Source of the DNA: a virus
Taxonomy: Duplodnaviria > Heunggongvirae > Uroviricota > Caudoviricetes
DNA: 8,588 bases
Virus record (IMG/VR): IMGVR_UViG_2563366821_000008
Direction: 5' to 3' (one strand)
A program made the position numbers and the translations under genes. Shown here piece after piece: positions 1-8,248 of this stretch. A model generated the notes under the pieces. It was given only the letters and a program-made list of their open reading frames with translations, searched no databases and was not told the DNA's origin. Every line of letters starts with the position of its first letter. Within the stretch, counting starts at the first letter, position 1.

Positions 1-612
1 CAACGATTTGGCCGCCGCCTCAGCCTGTATGTGAACACGGCAGCGGAAGCCATTCGCGCCCTGTCGATGCAGATGCCGGGCTTTCGCCGTCAGATGAACG
101 AAGGCTGGTACCAGATACGTATTGCCGGTGATGACACGGCACCGGAGGCGGTGTACGCCCGTCTTCACGAACAGCTGGGTGAGGGAACGGTCATCCACAT
201 TGTGCCGCGACTGGCCGGGGCCGGAAAGGGTGGACTGCAGATTGTGCTGGGGGCGGCAGCCATCGTGGGCTCTTTCTTCACGGCCGGTGCCTCGATGGCG
301 TTATGGGGTACAGCCCTGAGTGCCGGCGGTTTTTCTGCCACCACGATGCTGTTTTCACTGGGGGCCAGCATGATACTGGGCGGTGTGGCCCAGATGCTGG
401 CCCCGAAGGCAAAAACACCGGATTACCGCGCAACGGATAACGGCAGACAGAACACGTACTTTTCCTCACTGGATAACATGATTGCCCAGGGGAACCCGAT
501 GCCGGTGCCTTACGGGGAAATGCTGGTTGGCTCCCGCCGTATATCCCAGGACATCAGCACCCGTGATGAAGGCGGGGGCGGAAAGGTCGTGGTTATCGGG
601 CGGCAGGGGTAA
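1..612 (+). CDS. I: Tail assembly protein I (lambda gpI family), 5'-truncated by the window edge
   Basis: Frame 1 is open from base 1 (QRFGRRLSLYVNTAAEAIRAL...) to TAA at 610-612. The translation has a Gly/Ala-rich hydrophobic centre (GGLQIVLGAAAIVGSFFTAGAS...FSLGASMILGGVAQMLAPKA) and ...QNTYFSSLDNMIAQGN...YGEM.VGSR tail, which match my recollection of lambda gpI. It sits immediately upstream of J. Confidence 0.88.
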   Translation, partial: QRFGRRLSLYVNTAAEAIRALSMQMPGFRRQMNEGWYQIRIAGDDTAPEAVYARLHEQLGEGTVIHIVPRLAGAGKGGLQIVLGAAAIVGSFFTAGASMALWGTALSAGGFSATTMLFSLGASMILGGVAQMLAPKAKTPDYRATDNGRQNTYFSSLDNMIAQGNPMPVPYGEMLVGSRRISQDISTRDEGGGGKVVVIGRQG

Positions 613-626
613 AAAGAATAAAAAAA

Positions 627-658
627 TCCCGCAGTGATCGCGGACAGGAACTGCGGGA
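627..658 (-). terminator. Intrinsic-terminator-like hairpin, oriented for - strand transcription
   Basis: Perfect 8-bp stem tcccgcag (627-634) / ctgcggga (651-658) with a 16-nt loop. On the + strand it is preceded by an A-run (620-626), so on the - strand the stem is followed by U7. It lies 15 bp downstream of the I stop codon. Confidence 0.5.
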
Positions 659-822
659 GAGTTACGAAGATTAAGTGTAAGGAATTATTCTTATATCACG
701 ACAAAAAAATTAACGCAGAGAAATTATACGCGCCACAGTCAGTTTGTGAAAATGTGAAGATATTCAGAATTTTTATGCCATTACCGGTTTTAACCAACAG
801 GATTATCGGTGGGCATGAAAGA

Positions 823-858
823 AAACCCCGGTATCTGCTGATACCGGGGTTTCTCTTT
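823..858. terminator. Strong hairpin with pyrimidine/T-rich tracts on both sides (possible bidirectional terminator or structured RNA element)
   Basis: Perfect 10-bp stem ccccggtatc (826-835) / gataccgggg (840-849) with a 4-nt loop tgct, extendable by three A:T pairs (823-825 with 850-852). + strand 3' flank is tttctcttt; - strand 3' flank is ttttctttc. Confidence 0.45.
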
Positions 859-955
859 AGCATGGCAGAAATGTGTTTCATGCTTTTCGGGCGAAGGATA
901 TCCGACTTCTGTACGGAATGGCAAGTGGCGGTTAATTTATTCAGGGGAAGGCTGT

Positions 956-3900
956 ATGGGAAAAGGTGGCGGTAAGGCACACACGCCTCGTGAGGCGAAG
1001 GATAATCTCAAATCCACGCAGATGATGAGTGTGATTGATGCGATTGGTGAGGGACCGATAGAAGGTCCGGTGAAGGGACTGCAGAGTATTCTGGTGAACA
1101 AAACCCCGCTGACGGACACGGACGGTAATCCCGTGATACACGGTGTGACTGCGGTCTGGCGTGCCGGGGAGCAGGAGCAGACACCACCGGAAGGCTTTGA
1201 GTCCTCCGGAGCTGAAACCGGACTGGGCGTGGAAGTGACGAAGGCAAAACCGGTGACGCGCACCATTACGTCCGCGAACATTGACCGCCTGCGGGTTACC
1301 TTCGGGGTGCAGTCACTGGTGCAGACCACGTCAAAGGGCGACCGTAATCCTTCCTCTGTCCGGATTCTGATTCAGTTACAGCGTAATGGCCGCTGGGTGA
1401 CGGAAAAGGATGTCACCATTAACGGCAAGACCACCTCGCAGTTCCTGGCCTCGGTGATTCTGGATAATCTGCCTCCCCGGCCCTTTAACATCCGGATGGT
1501 CAGGGAGACGGCGGACAGCACCACGGACCAGCTGCAGAATAAGACGCTGTGGTCGTCATACACCGAAATCATCGATGTGAAACAGTGCTACCCGAACACG
1601 GCCATTGTGGGGCTGCAGGTGGATGCGGAGCAGTTCGGCGGCCAGCAGATGACGGTGAACTACCATATCCGCGGTCGCATCATCCAGGTGCCGTCAAACT
1701 ATGACCCGGAAAAACGCACGTACAGTGGTATCTGGGACGGCAGCCTGAAACCGGCATACAGCAACAACCCGGCCTGGTGTCTGTGGGACATGCTGACTCA
1801 CCCGCGCTACGGCATGGGAAAACGTCTGGGGGCGGCGGATGTGGACAAGTGGGCGCTGTATGCCATCGGGCAGTACTGCGACCAGACGGTCCCGGATGGT
1901 TTCGGGGGGACCGAGCCGCGGATGACCTTTAATGCGTACCTGGCACAACAGCGTAAGGCGTGGGACGTTCTCAGTGATTTCTGCTCTGCGATGCGCTGTA
2001 TGCCGGTATGGAACGGCCAGACGCTGACGTTCGTTCAGGACCGTCCGTCGGATGTGGTGTGGCCGTACACCAACAGCGATGTGGTGGTGGATGATAACGG
2101 CGTGGGTTTCCGCTACAGCTTCAGTGCCCTGAAGGACCGGCACACGGCAGTGGAGGTGAATTACACCGACCCGCAGAACGGCTGGCAGACCTCCACGGAA
2201 CTGGTGGAAGACCCGGAAGCCATACTGCGCTACGGACGCAACCTGCTGAAGATGGACGCGTTCGGCTGTACCAGCCGCGGTCAGGCCCACCGTGCCGGGC
2301 TGTGGGTGATAAAGACCGAACTGCTGGAAACGCAGACGGTGGATTTCACGCTCGGGTCACAGGGGCTGCGTCACACACCCGGTGACATCATTGAAATCTG
2401 TGATAACGACTATGCCGGGACCATGACCGGCGGACGTGTCCTGTCCATCGATGCCGCCAGCCGTACCCTGACGCTGGACCGGGAGGTGACACTGCCGGAG
2501 ACCGGCACGGCCACTGTTAATCTGATTAACGGCAGCGGTAAGCCGGCGAGCGTGGCCATCACCGCACACCCCGCGCCTGACCGGATACAGGTCAGCACCC
2601 TGCCGGATGGTGTGGAGACATACGGTGTGTGGGGACTCTCCCTGCCGTCACTGCGTCGTCGCCTGTTCCGCTGTGTCTCCATCCGGGAAAACACGGACGG
2701 CACCTTTGCCATCACGGCGGTGCAGCACGTACCTGAAAAAGAAGCCATCGTGGATAACGGGGCCCGCTTTGAGCCGCAGTCAGGCACCCTGAACAGCGTT
2801 ATCCCACCGGCAGTGCAGCACCTGACGGTGGAGGTGAGTGCAGCTGACGGTCAGTATCTGGCACAGGCGAAATGGGACACGCCGCGGGTGGTGAAGGGTG
2901 TGCGCTTCAGTCTGCGTCTGACCAGCGGAAGCGGAGAAGACAGCCGTCTGGTGAGCACCGCCAGCACCGCAGACACGGAGCACCGTTTCAGCGGTCTGCC
3001 GCTGGGGGAATACACCCTGACGGTGCGGGCCATTAACAGCTACGGCCAGCAGGGCGAACCTGCGACCACCACCTTCCGGATTAACGCGCCTGCAAAACCC
3101 GCCACCATTGAGCTGACGCCGGGGTATTTTCAGATAACGGCGGTACCGGTGCTGGCGGTGTATGACCCGACGGTGCAGTTTGAGTTCTGGTTTTCGGAAA
3201 AACGCATCACGAACACGGCACAGGTGGAAAAATCTGCCCGTTATCTGGGGACCGGCAGTCAGTGGACTGTCCAGGGCGATCGGATTAAGCCGGGGATGGA
3301 TTTCTGGTTTTATGTGCGCAGTGTCAACCTGGTGGGCAAGTCTGCATTTGTGGAAGCCAGCGGGCAGGCCAGCAATGATGCAAAAGGGTATCTGGAATTT
3401 TTCCGTGGTCTGATAGATGAGACGCTGCTGGGGCAGGCACTGAAAAAGCGCATTGATGCGTCAGCCCTGCGATCGGATGTCACTCAACTGGAAGAGAATA
3501 TCGGACAACTGGAAGAAGACATCCGTCAGCGGATGGACACGGATATTGCGGAAGTGACCCGGAAAATCGGGGAGGCGGAAAACAGCCTCACGCAGCTGGT
3601 TGCGAAAAAGAATGAGGATCAGACGCTGGCCATCGCGCAGGTGAGTCAGAAAGTGGACCGTGTCAGCAGTGAAATCTCACAGACGGTCAGTCAGAGCAGT
3701 GAGGAAAATACCCGACAGATAGCACAGGTCCGCCAGTACGTGGACAAAAAGCAAAGTGAAATCAAGCAGACAGTCAGCCAGGGCCAGTCAGAAAACGCCC
3801 GGCAGATAGCACAGGTCCGTCAGTACGTGGATGAAAAAGGGAGTGAAATTGCCTCGACCACGGATAAAAAACTGGGTGACCAGGCCGTGACCATACAGCA

Positions 3901-4756
3901 AATCCAGCGGGTTCAGTCAGACACGCGCGATAATCTGAATGCCATGTATATGCTGAAGGTGCAGAAAACGAAGAAGGGTATTCCGTATGTGGCCGGGATT
4001 GGCGCGGGGATCGAGGATGTCGATGGTCAGACGCTGAGTAACATTCTGCTGCAGGCCGATCGCATTGCGATGATTACTCCGGAGAACGGTAACACCACGC
4101 CGTTATTTGTGGCGCAGGGGAATCAGCTGTTCATGAACGACGTGTTCCTGAAGCGACTGTTTGCGGTGAGCATCACGTCATCCGGCAATCCTCCGACGTT
4201 TTCCCTGACGCCGGATGGCAGGCTGACAGCCCGCAATGCGGATATCAGTGGAGCCATCACGGCGAATACCGGCACGCTCAATAATGTCACCATTAACGAG
4301 AACTGTGTCATCAGAGGGAAACTGTCTGCAAACCAGATTGAAGGCGATCTCGTTAAAACAGTGGGTAAGGCTTTCCCCCGTGACTCCCGTGCACCGAAGC
4401 GTTGGCCATCAGGAACCATTACCGTCAGGGTTTATGACGATCAGCCGTTTAACCGGCAGATTGTTATTCCGGCGGTGGCTTTCAGCGGTGCCAGACATGA
4501 GCGGGAGAACAGCGATACTTATTCGTCATGCCGCCTGATAGTGAAGAAAAACGGTGCTGAAATTTATAACCGTACCGCGATGGATAATACGCTGGTTTAC
4601 AGTGGTGTTATTGATATGCCTGCTGGTCGCGGCCACATGACGCTGGAGTTTTCTGTATCAGCATGGTGGGTAAATGGCTGGTATCCCACAGCAAGTATCA
4701 GCGATTTGCTGGTTGTTGTGATGAAGAAAGCCACTGCAGGCATCACGATTAGCTGA
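956..4756 (+). CDS. J: Host specificity protein J (central tail fibre / tip attachment protein), 1266 aa
   Basis: ATG at 956 preceded by ggggaagg. N-terminus [22 protein letters not shown]..., and motifs such as [51 protein letters not shown] and [32 protein letters not shown], match lambda gpJ as I recall it. It is about 130 aa longer than lambda J (recalled as ~1130 aa) because of an internal coiled-coil expansion. Confidence 0.95.
3668..3850 (+). repeat. In-frame 87-bp tandem direct repeat (2 full copies plus the start of a third) inside J
   Basis: The motif agtgaaat recurs at 3668, 3755 and 3842 (period 87 bp = 29 codons). Translated copies are [29 protein letters not shown] and [29 protein letters not shown], followed by SEIAST. 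The nucleotide copies are near-identical in the cagatagcacaggtccg(c/t)cagtacgtgga core. Confidence 0.85.
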
Positions 4757-4774: not shown

Positions 4775-4800
4775 GGGCGCCAGAAATGGCGCCTTTTTTA
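4775..4800 (+). terminator. Rho-independent terminator downstream of J
   Basis: Palindromic stem ggcgcc (4776-4781) / ggcgcc (4788-4793), loop agaaat, followed by tttttt (4794-4799). It begins 19 bp after the J stop codon. Confidence 0.7.
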
Positions 4801-4823: not shown

Positions 4824-5423
4824 ATGCGTAAATTATGTGCTGCTATTTTGTCCGCAGTAGTCTGGCTGGTTGCCGCTGGTACGCCTGCATGGGCAGCAGA
4901 GCATCAGTCCACACTGAGCGCGGGGTATCTTCATGCCCGTACGAACGCTCCCGGCAGCGATAATCTGAACGGGATTAACGTGAAATACCGTTATGAGTTT
5001 ACGGACACGCTGGGGCTGATTACGTCTTTCAGTTATGCCGACGCAGAGGATGAACAAAAAACGCATTACAACGATACCCGCTGGCATGAAGATTCCGTGC
5101 GTAACCGCTGGTTCAGCGTGATGGCGGGGCCGTCTGTACGCGTGAATGAATGGTTCAGCGCGTATGCGATGGTGGGTGTGGCTTACAGCCGTGTGTCGAC
5201 TTTCTCCGGGGATTATCTCCGCGTAACTGACAACAAGGGGAAAACGCACGATGTGCTGACCGGAAGTGATGACGGTCGCCACAGCAACACGTCTCTGGCG
5301 TGGGGGGCTGGCGTGCAGTTTAACCCGACCGAATCCGTGACCATTGACCTTGCTTATGAAGGTTCCGGTAGTGGCGACTGGCGAACGGATGCATTTATTG
5401 TTGGTATCGGATACCGTTTCTGA
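4824..5423 (+). CDS. lom: Lom-like outer membrane protein (Ail/Lom family 8-strand beta-barrel), 199 aa
   Basis: ATG at 4824 preceded by gagagg. Signal peptide MRKLCAAILSAVVWLVAAGTPAWA with an AxA cleavage motif. GINVKYRYEFTD, SVMAGP, SAYAMVGVAYSR and the C-terminal IDLAYEGSGSGDWRTDAFIVGIGYRF (aromatic terminal residue) match lambda Lom as I recall it. The position directly after J is as in lambda. Confidence 0.9.
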   Translation: MRKLCAAILSAVVWLVAAGTPAWAAEHQSTLSAGYLHARTNAPGSDNLNGINVKYRYEFTDTLGLITSFSYADAEDEQKTHYNDTRWHEDSVRNRWFSVMAGPSVRVNEWFSAYAMVGVAYSRVSTFSGDYLRVTDNKGKTHDVLTGSDDGRHSNTSLAWGAGVQFNPTESVTIDLAYEGSGSGDWRTDAFIVGIGYRF

Positions 5424-5529
5424 CAACAGACGCCGATTTATCTTCTGTAAATATTGTTATGATACGCAGGTTCATCCACCTTATGGGGTGAACTGCGTTT
5501 GAGGAAACGTAAAGTTACACTGTCCTGAA

Positions 5530-5561
5530 GCCCGTGGCGTCACTGCTGCGGGCTTTTTTTA
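5530..5561 (+). terminator. Rho-independent terminator downstream of lom
   Basis: Stem of about 10 bp including G:U pairs (gcccgtggcg / tgctgcgggc) with loop tcac, followed by ttttttt (5554-5560). Immediately upstream of the stf ribosome-binding site. Confidence 0.65.
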
Positions 5562-5574
5562 TTGGTGGAAAAGT

Positions 5575-7641
5575 ATGACAGTAAAAATTTCTGGCGTGCT
5601 TAAAGATGGCACAGGAAAACCAGTACAGAACTGCACCATTGTGCTGAAGGCCAGACGAACCAGCAGCACGGTGGTGGTGAACACGGTGGCCTCTGAAAAT
5701 CCGGATGAAGCCGGACGTTACAGCATGGATGTTGAGCATGGTCAGTACAGCGTCACCCTGCTGGTTGAAGGTTTTCCGCCTTCACATGCCGGGACCATTA
5801 CCGTCTATGAAGGTTCCAGACCAGGTACGCTGAATGATTTTCTCGGCGCCATGACGGAGGATGATGTCCGTCCGGAGGCACTGCGCCGTTTTGAGCTGAT
5901 GGTGAATGAAGTGGCACGTCATGCCGGAGCGTCATCACAGAGTGCAGCGGCGGCAAAGAAATCCGAAACGGCAGCAGCCTCATCGAAGAATGCGGCGAAA
6001 ACCTCAGAAACGAATGCAGCTAACAGCGCACAGGCGGCAGCGGCCTCGCAGACTGCATCGGCAAACTCCGCGACAGCAGCCAAAAAATCAGAAACCAGCG
6101 CGAAAAATAGCGAGACAGCCACAAAGGCCAGCGAAAAAAACGCAAAATCCAGCCAGACGGCAGCGAAAACCAGTGAGACGAATGCCAAAGACAGTGAAGC
6201 CAACGCAAAGGTGAGCGAAACAGCGGCGGCGAACTCGGCGAAAGCATCGGCAGCAAGCCAGACGGCAGCAAAAGCAAGTGAAGATGCTGCCAGAGAATAC
6301 GCAAACCAGACAGCAGAGCCGTACAGATATGTTTTACAGCCGCTGCCGGATGTGTGGATACCCTTTAATGATTCGCTGGATATGATTACGGGCTATTCTC
6401 CGGGTTATAAAAAAGTGAAGATTGGTGATAATGTGGTTCAGGTTGCCAGTGATAAACAGGTTAATTTCAGTCGCGCATCAACGGCAACATATATCAACAA
6501 ATCTGGCGAACTGAAAACGGCGGAAATTAATGAGCCACGATTTGAGTGTGATGGCCTGCTTATTGAGGGGCAAAGAACGAACTTCTTCCCGAACAGTACA
6601 GACCCTTCGAAGTGGAATAAGTCAACTTCACTGGACGTTACAGAAACAGGCACAGATAGTTTCGGGTTTAATTATGGCCGGTTTGTCGTACAGGATTCGA
6701 TTGTTGGTACAAGTAAAGCGCATACCATTATCGGACTGTATTCGAGTACCGGAGGGGTTGATACTTCAGGGGACGAAAAGCATGTAACTATATCCTGTCG
6801 GGTAAAAAGTGAAGTTGATAATATCGCCGTTCGTATTTTATTTGAACATTATGATGGGGAGGTAAGGACATCAATAGGAGCAGCAAACCTGAACCTTACC
6901 ACCCGCATAATTAGCAAGACAGGTCAGACAAGCCGTGTTACAGCAAGGTCTGTTAAGGATGATGCAACTGGCTGGATATTTTTTGAGGCTACATTAAAAG
7001 CAGATACAACAGAAAATACGGTTGGTGGTTTTGTCCAGTATTCTCCGGATACAGGGCAGATGGTTGCATCAGGGGATTATCTCGATGTAACCACTCCACA
7101 GATTGAGGCTGGTACAGGCGCATCATCTTTTATTGTTACGGGGACGGCACCGGTAACGCGGGCAAGCGATATGGTTACAGTTCCGATTAAGAATAATCTT
7201 TATAATCTTCCTTTTACGGTTCTTTGTGAGGTACATAAGAACTGGTATAAAACGCCAAATGCAGCGCCACGTGTTTTTGATACCGGCGGTCATCAAACCG
7301 GAGCGGCTATTATTCTTGGCTTCGGATCTTCGGCAGATGGGCCAGACGGATTTCCTTATTGCGATATTGGTGGATCAAATAGGCGTGTTAACGAAAACGC
7401 ATCGTTGAAAAAAATGGTTATGGGGATGCGTGTAAAGTCAGATCAGTCTACATGTGCAGTAAGTAACGGGCGTATATCCAGCGAAACAAAAACCACATGG
7501 GAATATATCCGGAGTACAGCAATCATTCGCATTGGTGGACAAACTACAGCAGGATTACGCCATTTATTTGGGCATGTGAGGAATTTTCGTCTCTGGCATA
7601 AAGAGCTAACAGATGCGCAGCTTGGGGAGGTTGTGGAGTGA
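5575..7641 (+). CDS. stf: Side tail fibre protein Stf, mosaic: lambda-like N-terminal domain and heptad-repeat shaft joined to a non-lambda C-terminal domain (688 aa)
   Basis: N-terminus MTVKISGVLKDGTGKPVQNCTIVLKAR...GQYSVTLLVEGFPPSHAGTITVYE matches lambda Stf as I recall it. It is followed by an Ala/Ser/Thr/Lys-rich 7-residue repeat shaft, then an AT-richer C-terminal region of about 440 aa ending ...GHVRNFRLWHKELTDAQLGEVVE, which resembles the end motif of LamG-like / concanavalin-like jelly-roll domains (tentative). Confidence 0.9.
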   Translation: MTVKISGVLKDGTGKPVQNCTIVLKARRTSSTVVVNTVASENPDEAGRYSMDVEHGQYSVTLLVEGFPPSHAGTITVYEGSRPGTLNDFLGAMTEDDVRPEALRRFELMVNEVARHAGASSQSAAAAKKSETAAASSKNAAKTSETNAANSAQAAAASQTASANSATAAKKSETSAKNSETATKASEKNAKSSQTAAKTSETNAKDSEANAKVSETAAANSAKASAASQTAAKASEDAAREYANQTAEPYRYVLQPLPDVWIPFNDSLDMITGYSPGYKKVKIGDNVVQVASDKQVNFSRASTATYINKSGELKTAEINEPRFECDGLLIEGQRTNFFPNSTDPSKWNKSTSLDVTETGTDSFGFNYGRFVVQDSIVGTSKAHTIIGLYSSTGGVDTSGDEKHVTISCRVKSEVDNIAVRILFEHYDGEVRTSIGAANLNLTTRIISKTGQTSRVTARSVKDDATGWIFFEATLKADTTENTVGGFVQYSPDTGQMVASGDYLDVTTPQIEAGTGASSFIVTGTAPVTRASDMVTVPIKNNLYNLPFTVLCEVHKNWYKTPNAAPRVFDTGGHQTGAAIILGFGSSADGPDGFPYCDIGGSNRRVNENASLKKMVMGMRVKSDQSTCAVSNGRISSETKTTWEYIRSTAIIRIGGQTTAGLRHLFGHVRNFRLWHKELTDAQLGEVVE
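5935..6300 (+). repeat. Degenerate 21-bp (7-codon) tandem repeat region encoding the Stf shaft
   Basis: The translation parses into heptads (AKTSETN / AANSAQA / AAASQTA / SANSATA / AKKSETS / AKNSETA / TKASEKN / AKSSQTA / AKTSETN / AKDSEAN / AKVSETA ...). The repetition also generates long spurious ORFs in other frames and on the opposite strand. Confidence 0.8.
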
Positions 7642-7916
7642 GAGATTTCACGTTGCGTTTCAGTGATAAAGCAGATTTCAGGGCATTTCTCAGGAAACTT
7701 AACTGGGAAGAGGACGAAGAGCTGCAGAATGCCGTTCTGGTTGATGAGATTGGTTTTACGTTCAGTGAGTCAGGTGTTTCTGCTGACGGGGAGCCAGAAT
7801 ACACGCGAAACGAAGGGTACTTTGTTAATATCCGTCTTCTTGACGATGGCTTTGATGATTCCGTGTTCCGTGAGTGGGTGGTTACACCAGAGCGCCCGCT
7901 CAGGGAGTGGTTTTAA
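7638..7916 (+). CDS. Hypothetical acidic 92-aa protein, translationally coupled to stf (candidate fibre-specific chaperone/assembly factor)
   Basis: GTG start at 7638 overlaps the stf stop (gtGTGa) and is preceded by ggggagg at 7624-7630. There is no in-frame ATG anywhere in the ORF. The protein is highly acidic (many D/E), with no hydrophobic segment. I recognise no family. The overlapping alternative-frame ORF 7663..7965 translates to an Arg/Cys-rich product that does not look protein-like. Confidence 0.6.
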   Translation: MRDFTLRFSDKADFRAFLRKLNWEEDEELQNAVLVDEIGFTFSESGVSADGEPEYTRNEGYFVNIRLLDDGFDDSVFREWVVTPERPLREWF

Positions 7917-7925
7917 GGATAGCAG

Positions 7926-8222
7926 ATGGATATCACGTCGATACTTCATGCAATTTGTGCAGTAGCCGTACAGGGGCTGGTTGGGTGCATTACCGGTGAC
8001 TGGGCTTATGGTGCAGCCATTGCCTGTACGTTTTTTGTTGCCCGCGAATATACCCAGGCAGAATATCGCTGGATTAAGCGTTTTGGTGATGGTCACCGAC
8101 AGAACATGCCGTGGTGGGGCGGTTTTGATCCGCGTGTGTGGAATGTGGCCAGTCTGATGGATTTTGTGGTGCCGGTGGTGGCCTGTGCGGGATTGTATGG
8201 CTGTATGCTGATTTTTAGCTGA
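7926..8222 (+). CDS. Hypothetical small integral membrane protein, 98 aa (2-3 predicted TM segments)
   Basis: ATG at 7926 with aagga 6 nt upstream, 9 bp after the previous stop. Hydrophobic segments ILHAICAVAVQGLVGCI, YGAAIACTFFVA and VASLMDFVVPVVACAGLYGCMLIF. A lipobox-like LVGC occurs at residues 18-21, but the N-region carries no positive charge. A hairpin follows the stop codon. Confidence 0.6.
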   Translation: MDITSILHAICAVAVQGLVGCITGDWAYGAAIACTFFVAREYTQAEYRWIKRFGDGHRQNMPWWGGFDPRVWNVASLMDFVVPVVACAGLYGCMLIFS

Positions 8223-8248
8223 AAAAAAGGGGAGCACTCAGGCTCCCC
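8222..8248 (-). terminator. Rho-independent terminator for the - strand dinI-like gene (may also attenuate + strand read-through)
   Basis: Stem ggggagc (8229-8235) / gctcccc (8242-8248) with loop actcag. On the + strand it is preceded by a7 (8222-8228), giving U7 after the stem on the - strand transcript. Confidence 0.65.

Follow-up and report, generated by a model that had tools for sequence, protein, structure and literature searches.

Introduction

PasB is one of five 'pathogenicity-associated' small RNAs (sRNAs) identified by RNA interaction by ligation and sequencing (RIL-seq) in enteropathogenic Escherichia coli (EPEC) O127:H6 E2348/69 (Pearl Mizrahi et al. 2021, PMC8550237). EcOnc22, EcOnc23 and EcOnc24 are plus-strand RNAs of the Sakai strain of E. 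coli O157:H7, assigned to its prophages Sp15 (Stx1), Sp14 and Sp11 (Tree et al. 2014, PMC4104026, Table S2). Here we analyse 8588 nucleotides of tailed-phage DNA (Caudoviricetes; IMG/VR record IMGVR_UViG_2563366821_000008; "the window" hereafter means this whole stretch), in which the tail genes I and J are separated by a spacer at 613-955. We consider it very probable that the spacer is composed of two parts, an sRNA gene of the PasB/EcOnc22-24 family carried as a moron on the minus strand (620-750), and a separate, exchangeable terminator or insulator cassette in front of J (776-955).

PasB was verified by Northern blotting, and its stability is Hfq-dependent (PMC8550237). It is placed at NC_011601.1 1466343→1466261 (minus strand, 83 nt) in prophage PP6, between E2348C_1436 and E2348C_1437; the Northern probe was AATCCCGCAGTGATCGCGGAGCT (both PMC8550237, Table S6). 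The RNA takes part in 37 Hfq-mediated RIL-seq interactions with unlinked core and island transcripts, in the RNA2 position like classical trans-acting sRNAs, and it was commoner in the non-activating than in the activating condition (PMC8550237). A position immediately 5′ of the terminator has been proposed for its seed (Zhu, Shabalina and Storz 2026, bioRxiv 10.64898/2026.05.13.724894). The EcOnc22-24 RNA runs at about 85 nt on Northern blots, is 'destabilised' in delta-hfq and gives peaks in Hfq cross-linking and analysis of cDNA (Hfq-CRAC; PMC4104026). The target of EcOnc22 is given as unknown in the literature searched.

A predicted small transcription unit next to gene I

By its gene content (open reading frame (ORF) list and Pfam) the window comes from a lambdoid prophage and covers its tail-tip region. 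The two genes that frame the spacer are:

31 to 612, plus strand: I-like tail assembly gene (Pfam Lambda_tail_I), stop codon at 610-612
956 to 4756, plus strand: J, with seven gpJ domains (Pfam)

The spacer between them measures 343 bp. The corresponding gap in lambda is 60 bp (I end 15444, J start 15505; 54 by automated spacer extraction). GC content in 150-nt windows over 601-900 is 0.41, 0.34 and 0.42, against 0.55-0.65 in the flanks. A preliminary description, made from the sequence alone, had pointed to both the unusual length (about 343 against about 60 bp) and the AT-rich character of the spacer, and both are borne out. It had also seen two near-perfect hairpins, of 8 and 10 bp; these are in fact perfect inverted repeats and slightly longer. 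Hairpin 1 has 9-nt arms (627-635 and 650-658, 100% complementary) and a 14-nt loop, and hairpin 2 has 13-nt arms (823-835 and 840-852, 100% complementary) and a 4-nt loop. The fold of the whole spacer has z = -4.8 on either strand, with none of 100 shuffles equally stable; hairpin 1 alone has z of about -4.1, and one shuffle in 200 was as stable. The preliminary description had proposed such a folding check, and spacer and hairpins are indeed more stable than shuffles.

Judged by its predicted signals, the left third of the spacer (approximately 620-750, about 130 bp, minus strand) is a complete small transcription unit, with the following parts:

723 to 750, minus strand: predicted sigma-70 promoter, -35 TTCACA (750-745), 16-nt spacer, -10 TATAAT (728-723), 11 of 12 consensus positions
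620 to 716, minus strand: predicted PasB-family sRNA, read 716→620, about 97 nt, matched by a covariance model
664 to 692, minus strand: conserved single-stranded core with (ARN)3 tract AAGAAUAAU, UCCUUA and UUAAUCUUC, from alignments
620 to 658, minus strand: intrinsic terminator (hairpin 1 and U7), stem 658-650/635-627, U7 at 626-620

In a consensus scan TTCACA-16-TATAAT is the best promoter match in all 8588 bases, and above 10 of 12 positions the only matches window-wide are this one and its own 18-nt-spacer variant. The predicted +1 falls near 716. The predicted 97-nt RNA (716→620) reads GCGUUAAUUUUUUUGUCGUGAUAUAAGAAUAAUUCCUUACACUUAAUCUUCGUAACUCUCCCGCAGUUCCUGUCCGCGAUCACUGCGGGAUUUUUUU, and its core at 664-692 is a putative Hfq distal-face site and seed. 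A terminator scan scored the minus strand at 644-628, followed by ATTTTTTT, in agreement with the earlier assignment of hairpin 1 and U7 as a minus-strand terminator. On the plus-strand side hairpin 1 is without a T-tract, so it would terminate transcription in the minus direction only.

An antisense-oriented sRNA or moron unit ending just past I had been anticipated in the preliminary description; we find the promoter and the terminator, and homology to PasB and EcOnc22-24 besides. For the promoter it had suggested a search of the minus strand at 860-955; the predicted site lies instead at 723-750. The unit had further been thought to occupy the 343-bp insert. The evidence supports a minus-strand unit, of only about 130 bp, and hairpin 2 lies outside it.

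Kinship with PasB

In the RefSeq record the neighbours of PasB are a tail assembly protein (I) and gpJ; PasB thus sits in the I-J spacer of PP6, starting 6 nt past the I stop codon. Of the Northern probe, 20 nt are identical to window 625-644. Alignment of the window with the E2348/69 spacer shows an invariant promoter region and terminator and a differing RNA body. We built a covariance model from 13 E2348-like alleles and zero window-type sequences. RNAalifold proposes a helix in the 5′ part of the sRNA in which no pair covaries, and only the terminator helix was therefore specified in the model. Run with filters off, the model matched the window at 716→620 over its full length (positions 1-98 of 98) with 60.9 bits and E = 4.4e-14, and no other significant match was found within the window. 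The preliminary description could name no sRNA for the element, which can now be assigned to the PasB/EcOnc22-24 family.

The two loci are alike in several respects. Both lie between tail genes I and J and both are antisense; the promoter block is shared, the terminator stem CCCGCAG/CUGCGGG with U7 is common to both, and so is the conserved core UCCUU...U(U/G)AUCUUC. They differ in that the window allele is 74% identical overall and about 67% in the body, and in that its terminator loop is longer. E2348/69 also has a short 84-bp right module where the window has a 180-bp one (R0, below). The seed stretch is UUAAUCUUC in the window and in other published-type variants, and UUGAUCUUC in E2348/69.

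A recent survey of PasB used blastn with word size 28 and query coverage above 75%, and found that PasB varies by only a few nucleotides (bioRxiv 10.64898/2026.05.13.724894). With the E2348/69 query, blastn at word size 28 gives no match in the window, and at word size 11 it aligns 25 nt there (30% coverage). By inference, that survey did not count the window allele. Surveys that rely on BLAST underestimate how diverse the PasB family is.

EcOnc22-24 belong to the same family

The EcOnc22-24 peaks map between I and J in Sp15, Sp14 and Sp11, where the tail genes are on the minus strand. The covariance model matches all three spacers on the plus strand, with 75 bits (L numbers denote loci in our collection):

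NC_002695.2 2902836-2902926, plus strand: model match (L129)
NC_002695.2 2676767-2676857, plus strand: model match (L130)
NC_002695.2 2166817-2166907, plus strand: model match (L131)

The Sakai reference has since been revised, and the published peak coordinates stand about 125-145 nt off the current RefSeq record. Calibration on AgvB gives a shift of +137 to +146 nt, which puts the peaks inside the model matches. Over its first 23 nt the EcOnc22 probe (GGGAGAGAACGATGAAGATTAAC...) is an exact reverse complement of the RNA from Sakai (...GUUAAUCUUCAUCGUUCUCUCCC); in the final 10 nt its printed sequence departs from the genome, presumably through errors in the PDF text.

Any two of the EPEC, Sakai and window alleles share 74% identity over the whole length, and 66-70% within the body. 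The window allele is thus as distant from each validated allele as those are from each other. Compared with the window copy, EcOnc22-24 share the I-J spacer, the antisense strand and a rho-independent terminator with an equal stem; the Sakai -35 region diverges from that of the window, and a palindrome upstream of it (below) is kept. On this evidence, EcOnc22-24 and PasB are one family. We did not find this link in the literature searched, and Table S6 of the PasB study gives no homologue in enterohaemorrhagic E. coli. A literature search on sRNAs of strain CFT073 at the I-J locus likewise returned nothing relevant.

An Rfam search of the region, as the preliminary description had proposed, matched no family in the window. 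At gathering and at permissive thresholds there was no credible match, the best being chance terminator-like matches of 15-20 bits, far below gathering scores; no Rfam family matches the Sakai copies either. Identity with AgvB or AsxR (RF02702, RF02703) was considered and rejected: neither model matches 500-1100 at gathering or at E<=10, and the genomic position differs. As a control, the Rfam model found the true AgvB in Sakai and did not find the Sakai I-J spacers.

Variation and spread of the family

With an exact 25-mer of the promoter block as query, 120 IMG/VR loci were recovered, and a second scan on the terminator alone added alleles. On their left-hand side the 120 loci form six clusters of sRNA alleles, and on their right-hand side six modules; the two sides are combined as a mosaic, and the window has L0+R0, the commonest left/right pair. 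Conserved in 59 distinct members are GCGUUA at the predicted +1, a U-run, an A-rich tract of ARN triplets, UCCUUA, UUAAUC(UUC) and the terminator with U7; the window copy has all of these. The -10 is conserved across alleles. In the alignment of the 59 members the terminator helix is paired in 99.3% of cells, and there are four compensatory pairs, all from one divergent unit.

Of 5426 complete E. coli genomes, 1848 contain matches to the left part of the spacer. These matches number 4761, with as many as nine in a single genome, and no annotated feature lies beneath the spacer matches among those listed. Records with the window-type allele at 99% identity or more number 633, and CFT073, S88 and ATCC 25922 are among them. 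The full 343-bp spacer is 100% identical in these three strains and in many more E. coli chromosomes, and is unannotated in all. An exact-motif scan of one genome per species gave, outside E. coli, only E. albertii and two likely contaminated assemblies. At exact-motif stringency the sequences therefore give no sign of the locus outside Escherichia. The two assemblies carry the exact 25-mer on tiny contigs, one of Asaia platycodi (L125, NZ_BAKW01000035.1, 546 bp) and one of Streptomyces flavalbus (L127, NZ_JBHTEB010000006.1, 3408 bp). The latter also has a PasB model match of 94 bits. Both are probably contamination by E. coli or phage DNA.

Among relatives the I-J spacer ranges from 54 to 1599 bp and holds one to four units or sodC. 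A comparison of I-J lengths, suggested in the preliminary description, yields values of about 240, 343, 420, 850, 911 and 1599 bp against 60 bp in lambda, pointing to a discrete insertion. The window unit is such an insertion between I and J, with a predicted promoter and terminator of its own.

We note that some IMG/VR phages (L164, L156, L158 and L184) have tandem arrays of two to four diverged PasB-like units, each with its own promoter block and terminator. The 911-nt spacer of L164 gives three significant model matches (minus-strand units at 322-414, 541-635 and 994-1084), and its fourth unit has another terminator; one type of array unit has the stem CUCCCGU...ACGGGAG. The junctions of the arrays retain a remnant of the 3′ end of gene I (ggatatcggtggca...). 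In L176 and nine other loci (e.g. L168, L172 and L166; spacers of 848-851 nt) the spacer contains a minus-strand gene for a Cu,Zn superoxide dismutase (Pfam Sod_Cu, E = 4e-32). The insertion of this sodC displaces the PasB promoter; the sRNA body and terminator remain. With both sodC and sRNA genes inserted there, the I-J junction is therefore a general hot spot for antisense morons.

It is very unlikely, in our view, that the region is decayed, non-functional filler, the remnant of a gene or a set of recombination scars with chance hairpins. Its AT-richness, its mosaicism and its range of lengths (54 to 1599 bp) would suit such an origin. However, promoter, +1 GCGUUA, seed core and terminator have been preserved in alleles whose identity is otherwise about 67%, and two of the alleles yield abundant Hfq-dependent RNAs (PMC8550237; PMC4104026). 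The recurrence of the window allele in the 633 records argues in the same direction, as do the folds, in which the whole spacer and hairpin 2 beat all shuffles (0/100 and 0/200) and hairpin 1 all but one in 200.

A palindrome upstream of the promoter

Next to the -35 element lies a further conserved sequence:

753 to 768: palindrome TGTGA-AGATAT-TCAGA (TGTGAAGATATTCAGA), CRP-like, 9 of 10 positions of the core consensus TGTGA-N6-TCACA

The window contains no second CRP-consensus match; taken alone, however, the match is not significant, since 68 of 200 shuffles contain one or more. We examined 20 unique upstream regions that had been picked without the palindrome motif. In 18 of them the half-sites and their A/T flanks are invariant at a fixed position, and the central N6 differs between alleles; in the other two, the sodC insertion has removed the promoter. 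On the sRNA strand the palindrome reads TCTGA-N6-TCACA, and in 16 of the 18 alleles its centre is at -44.5 from the predicted +1. This spacing fits neither class II (-41.5) nor class I (-61.5, -71.5) CRP sites. Because it is non-canonical, CRP is kept as a lead only for the regulator that may bind here. The media of the PasB study were reportedly LB (lysogeny broth; non-activating) and glucose-containing DMEM (Dulbecco's modified Eagle's medium; activating). If this is right, the difference in PasB between conditions would fit catabolite control, which we regard as weak evidence.

The module in front of J

The right-hand part of the spacer has the following features:

776 to 955: module R0, 180 bp, a cassette apart from the sRNA gene
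823 to 852, both strands: hairpin 2, a perfect 13-bp stem with 4-nt loop, having an upstream A-tract and a downstream T-rich tract whichever way it is read
895 to 924, minus strand: weak promoter-like site TTGCCA-18-TATCCT, 9 of 12 positions, speculative
941 to 958, plus strand: Shine-Dalgarno region (GGGGAAGG) and ATG of J

R0 occurs in 1446 of 5426 E. coli genomes and is at least 99% identical in 1443 records. Only 13 phage records have it, all identical, and blastn finds no homology between R0 and the alternative right modules. Hairpin 2 has a folding energy of -30.8 kcal/mol on the plus and -28.7 kcal/mol on the minus strand (z of about -6.5; 0/200 shuffles), and its tails are UUUCUCUUU (plus) and UUUUCUUUC (minus). 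It is most likely, to judge from its form and from the analogies below, a bidirectional terminator or an insulator. The preliminary description had offered a transcriptional insulator as an alternative for the whole insert; this may apply to the hairpin 2 module and does not apply to the sRNA unit.

The alternative right modules, of 83-93 bp, contain a hairpin in the tail sense, CAGGCAyCC-loop-GGrTGCCTG, after which comes TTGTTTTT; one of its pairs occurs as a T-A / T.G / C-G series. The Sakai spacers carry this CAGGCAyCC/GGrTGCCTG hairpin too, and E2348/69 likewise has a tail-sense hairpin at the position of hairpin 2. In lambda, the I-J spacer holds the tail-sense hairpin ACCGCC-TGCG-GGCGGT with TTTGTCATTT behind it, some 16 nt before J starts (866-889 in our lambda locus L128, approximately 15465-15488 of NC_001416.1). 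The lambda hairpin resembles hairpin 2 in its GC-rich stem, in its tail-sense T-tract and in lying tens of nucleotides upstream of J, hairpin 2 being in an equal relative position. The sequences are unrelated, and hairpin 2 has the longer stem (13 bp), with a T-tract following it on either strand. To our knowledge, the function of the lambda I-J hairpin is not established. Since lambda and the other alleles share a tail-sense hairpin and T-tract before J, these are the ancestral feature of the junction. Read from these sequences, the sRNA gene has been inserted behind the I stop codon and ahead of the ancestral pre-J hairpin.

One R0 variant (L066, with a 295-nt spacer; one IMG/VR variant) is without exactly the 47 nt that hold hairpin 2. 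The deletion lies between AGAAA direct repeats (window approximately 819-823 and 866-870) and leaves an alternative hairpin GCAUGAAA...UUUCAUGC followed by UUUUC.

A search for a plus-strand promoter of a tail-sense small RNA ending at hairpin 2 found none by scan or by eye. Hairpin 2 could alternatively be the terminator of a second minus-strand sRNA of about 70 nt (~888→818), so that the spacer would hold two tandem antisense genes, an arrangement that we think unlikely. The weak site at 924-895 stands at the right distance from hairpin 2, UUUUCUUUC trails the hairpin on the minus strand, and tandem arrays of two to four PasB-like units do occur in the I-J spacer of other phages. Window 803-818 (ggattatcggtgggca), directly left of hairpin 2, resembles by eye the remnant of the I 3′ end at array junctions, and 908→818 is the runner-up match of the covariance model. 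That match is however non-significant (8.9 bits, E = 0.56), and the putative RNA is without the family motifs UCCUUA and UUAAUC. Promoter sites at 9 of 12 positions are equally frequent in shuffles (7 found, 6.0 expected), and blastn shows no homology of R0 to any other unit. No orphan EcOnc Hfq peak is listed for a tail region of Sakai Sp12, the presence of R0 in Sakai being unchecked. The idea that R0 is itself a diverged PasB copy was rejected, as blastn-short gives no homology and the covariance model E = 0.56; only the short similarity to the I 3′-end remnant speaks for it.

A coding role for the spacer is scarcely credible. The candidates are a 66-aa plus-strand ORF (775-975) and a 61-aa minus-strand ORF (881-696), both open in the window; phage ASU11 annotates an ORF equal to window 775-975 as 'hypothetical protein', and PhiR12_1 annotates a different 32-aa ORF in a shorter spacer. 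Neither ORF has a Pfam match or a Shine-Dalgarno sequence upstream of its start codon, in keeping with the earlier judgement that the spacer ORFs are implausible. The plus-strand ORF runs across the 13-bp hairpin and overlaps the J start, and the minus-strand ORF crosses the sRNA promoter into modules that are swapped independently. R0 variants with 1-, 5- and 47-nt indels break the ORFs, and RefSeq annotates nothing here among the E. coli genome records listed. The 'tiny protein' that the preliminary description had allowed for is thus without support.

Proposed mode of action

Our preferred reading, an sRNA moron beside I and an exchangeable terminator or insulator cassette before J, suggests the following scheme. 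The sigma-70 promoter at 750-723 would fire away from J, against the tail operon, and the RNA of about 85-97 nt would end at hairpin 1 and U7, directly past the I stop codon. By homology, the window sRNA would be expressed from the repressed prophage; the homologues were detected in uninduced lysogens (PMC8550237; PMC4104026). The anatomy, homology and synteny described above are our own observations, and expression and Hfq-dependence are known from the literature for two other alleles. For the window allele we infer that the RNA made in the lysogen would be bound and stabilised by Hfq and would pair in trans with host and island mRNAs. Hfq would contact the U-tail and terminator, the U-run and the (ARN)3 tract. 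Pairing would proceed via UCCUUA...UUAAUCUUC, the conserved unpaired segment that immediately precedes the terminator. The segment is similar to an anti-Shine-Dalgarno sequence, and translational repression at ribosome-binding sites would therefore be the simplest mode.

Hairpin 2 would have two roles in this scheme. On the plus strand it may stop polymerase that is unmodified by the Q antiterminator before J is reached; on the minus strand it may, in the window allele, shield the sRNA promoter from antisense read-in.

As the gene is antisense inside the late operon, its RNA could pair without a mismatch along the I-J stretch of the late transcript, and during lytic growth the sRNA and the late transcript may interfere with each other. 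One could suppose that the minus-strand RNA acts mainly in cis, by RNase III cleavage at the I-J junction or transcriptional interference, and so sets the I:J ratio or delays J. The location in the late operon on the opposite strand, with full complementarity over about 97 nt, would fit such a role; the position directly past the I stop codon is strictly conserved, and the RNA is kept in particle-forming phages, e.g. ASU11 (induced with mitomycin C) and the PhiR12 phages. We nevertheless hold a mainly cis-acting RNA to be improbable. EPEC PasB takes part in its 37 Hfq-mediated interactions with unlinked transcripts in an RNA2-like manner (PMC8550237), lambda and the sodC-bearing phages build tails without the sRNA, and tandem arrays of two to four diverged copies better fit a cargo of diversifying trans regulators. 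The cis and trans modes are, moreover, compatible.

Several points weigh against the preferred reading of sRNA moron and pre-J cassette. RNA-seq coverage puts the 5′ end of the EPEC RNA some 13-15 nt further downstream than the +1 that the -10 predicts; in window coordinates this published E2348/69 end falls at approximately 703, and the 5′ end of the sRNA is accordingly uncertain by about 13 nt. No structure beyond the terminator is supported by covariation. In the simple terminator scan hairpin 2 fails the T-count rule, since some of its T-tract is paired with the A-tract on the other side. R0 is near-invariant, and for this reason comparison cannot test the role of the module or of its hairpin. 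Expression of the window allele is a prediction, and with a body only about 67% identical to EPEC PasB its targets may differ or be lost. What is known of the function of PasB and EcOnc22 does not extend beyond RIL-seq partners (PMC8550237; PMC4104026).

A bolder interpretation can also be drawn, which is possible and on balance doubtful. The I-J junction would be a dedicated cassette site for antisense regulatory RNAs, in which promoter, CRP-like operator and terminator are fixed and the body, seed flanks included, is swapped or duplicated (one to four units), providing prophage-specific and possibly catabolite-responsive regulation. The CFT073-type allele would then be a distinct sRNA of extraintestinal pathogenic E. 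coli (ExPEC) that surveys have missed, and R0 would add a second, unrelated RNA ending at hairpin 2.

Significance

The PasB/EcOnc22-24 sRNA family is already known, and the window element is a real, ordinary new member of it. New are the placing of a divergent, widespread ExPEC-type allele in the family, the link between EcOnc22-24 and PasB, by which two separately named and validated sRNAs are joined, the mosaic and tandem architecture of the I-J junction, and the conserved palindrome. Among uropathogenic and other extraintestinal strains, of which CFT073, S88 and ATCC 25922 are examples, this third, equally divergent allele is the common one, and strains of the CFT073 type thereby gain a concrete candidate for an Hfq-dependent regulator. 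The locus is present in about one third of complete E. coli genomes, and its I-J junction is a hot spot for antisense cargo, namely sRNA genes, tandem arrays and sodC. The operator-like palindrome could tie expression of the prophage sRNA to host physiology.

Neighbouring genes

Beyond J the window contains:

4775 to 4794, plus strand: strong tail-sense intrinsic terminator after J, 8-bp stem and T6
4824 to 5423: Ail/Lom gene (Pfam)
5527 to 5556, plus strand: strong tail-sense intrinsic terminator after lom, 13-bp stem and T7
5575 to 7641: side tail fibre gene (Pfam)
7770 to 8237, minus strand: ORF of 155 aa downstream of the tail-fibre genes, no Pfam match
8229 to 8248, minus strand: terminator-like hairpin GGGGAGC...GCTCCCC with T7, at the 5′ end of the preceding ORF

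Terminators thus punctuate this late region, which speaks for the terminator reading of hairpin 2, and their presence on both sides of lom is the classic layout of a moron.

Comparison with known systems

AgvB and AsxR are, like the RNA predicted here, short Hfq-binding RNAs of lambdoid prophages with a conserved 3′ terminator, a variable 5′ part and a proposed ARN tract for the distal face of Hfq. They differ in their location, which is the late-regulatory/lysis region and not the tail operon, and they show no match in sequence or structure. The morons lom, bor and prophage sodC provide the other comparison. They share with the window unit an autonomous promoter-terminator arrangement between two late genes and, presumably, expression from the prophage. 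The window unit, in contrast, carries a non-coding RNA as its cargo and points against the operon.

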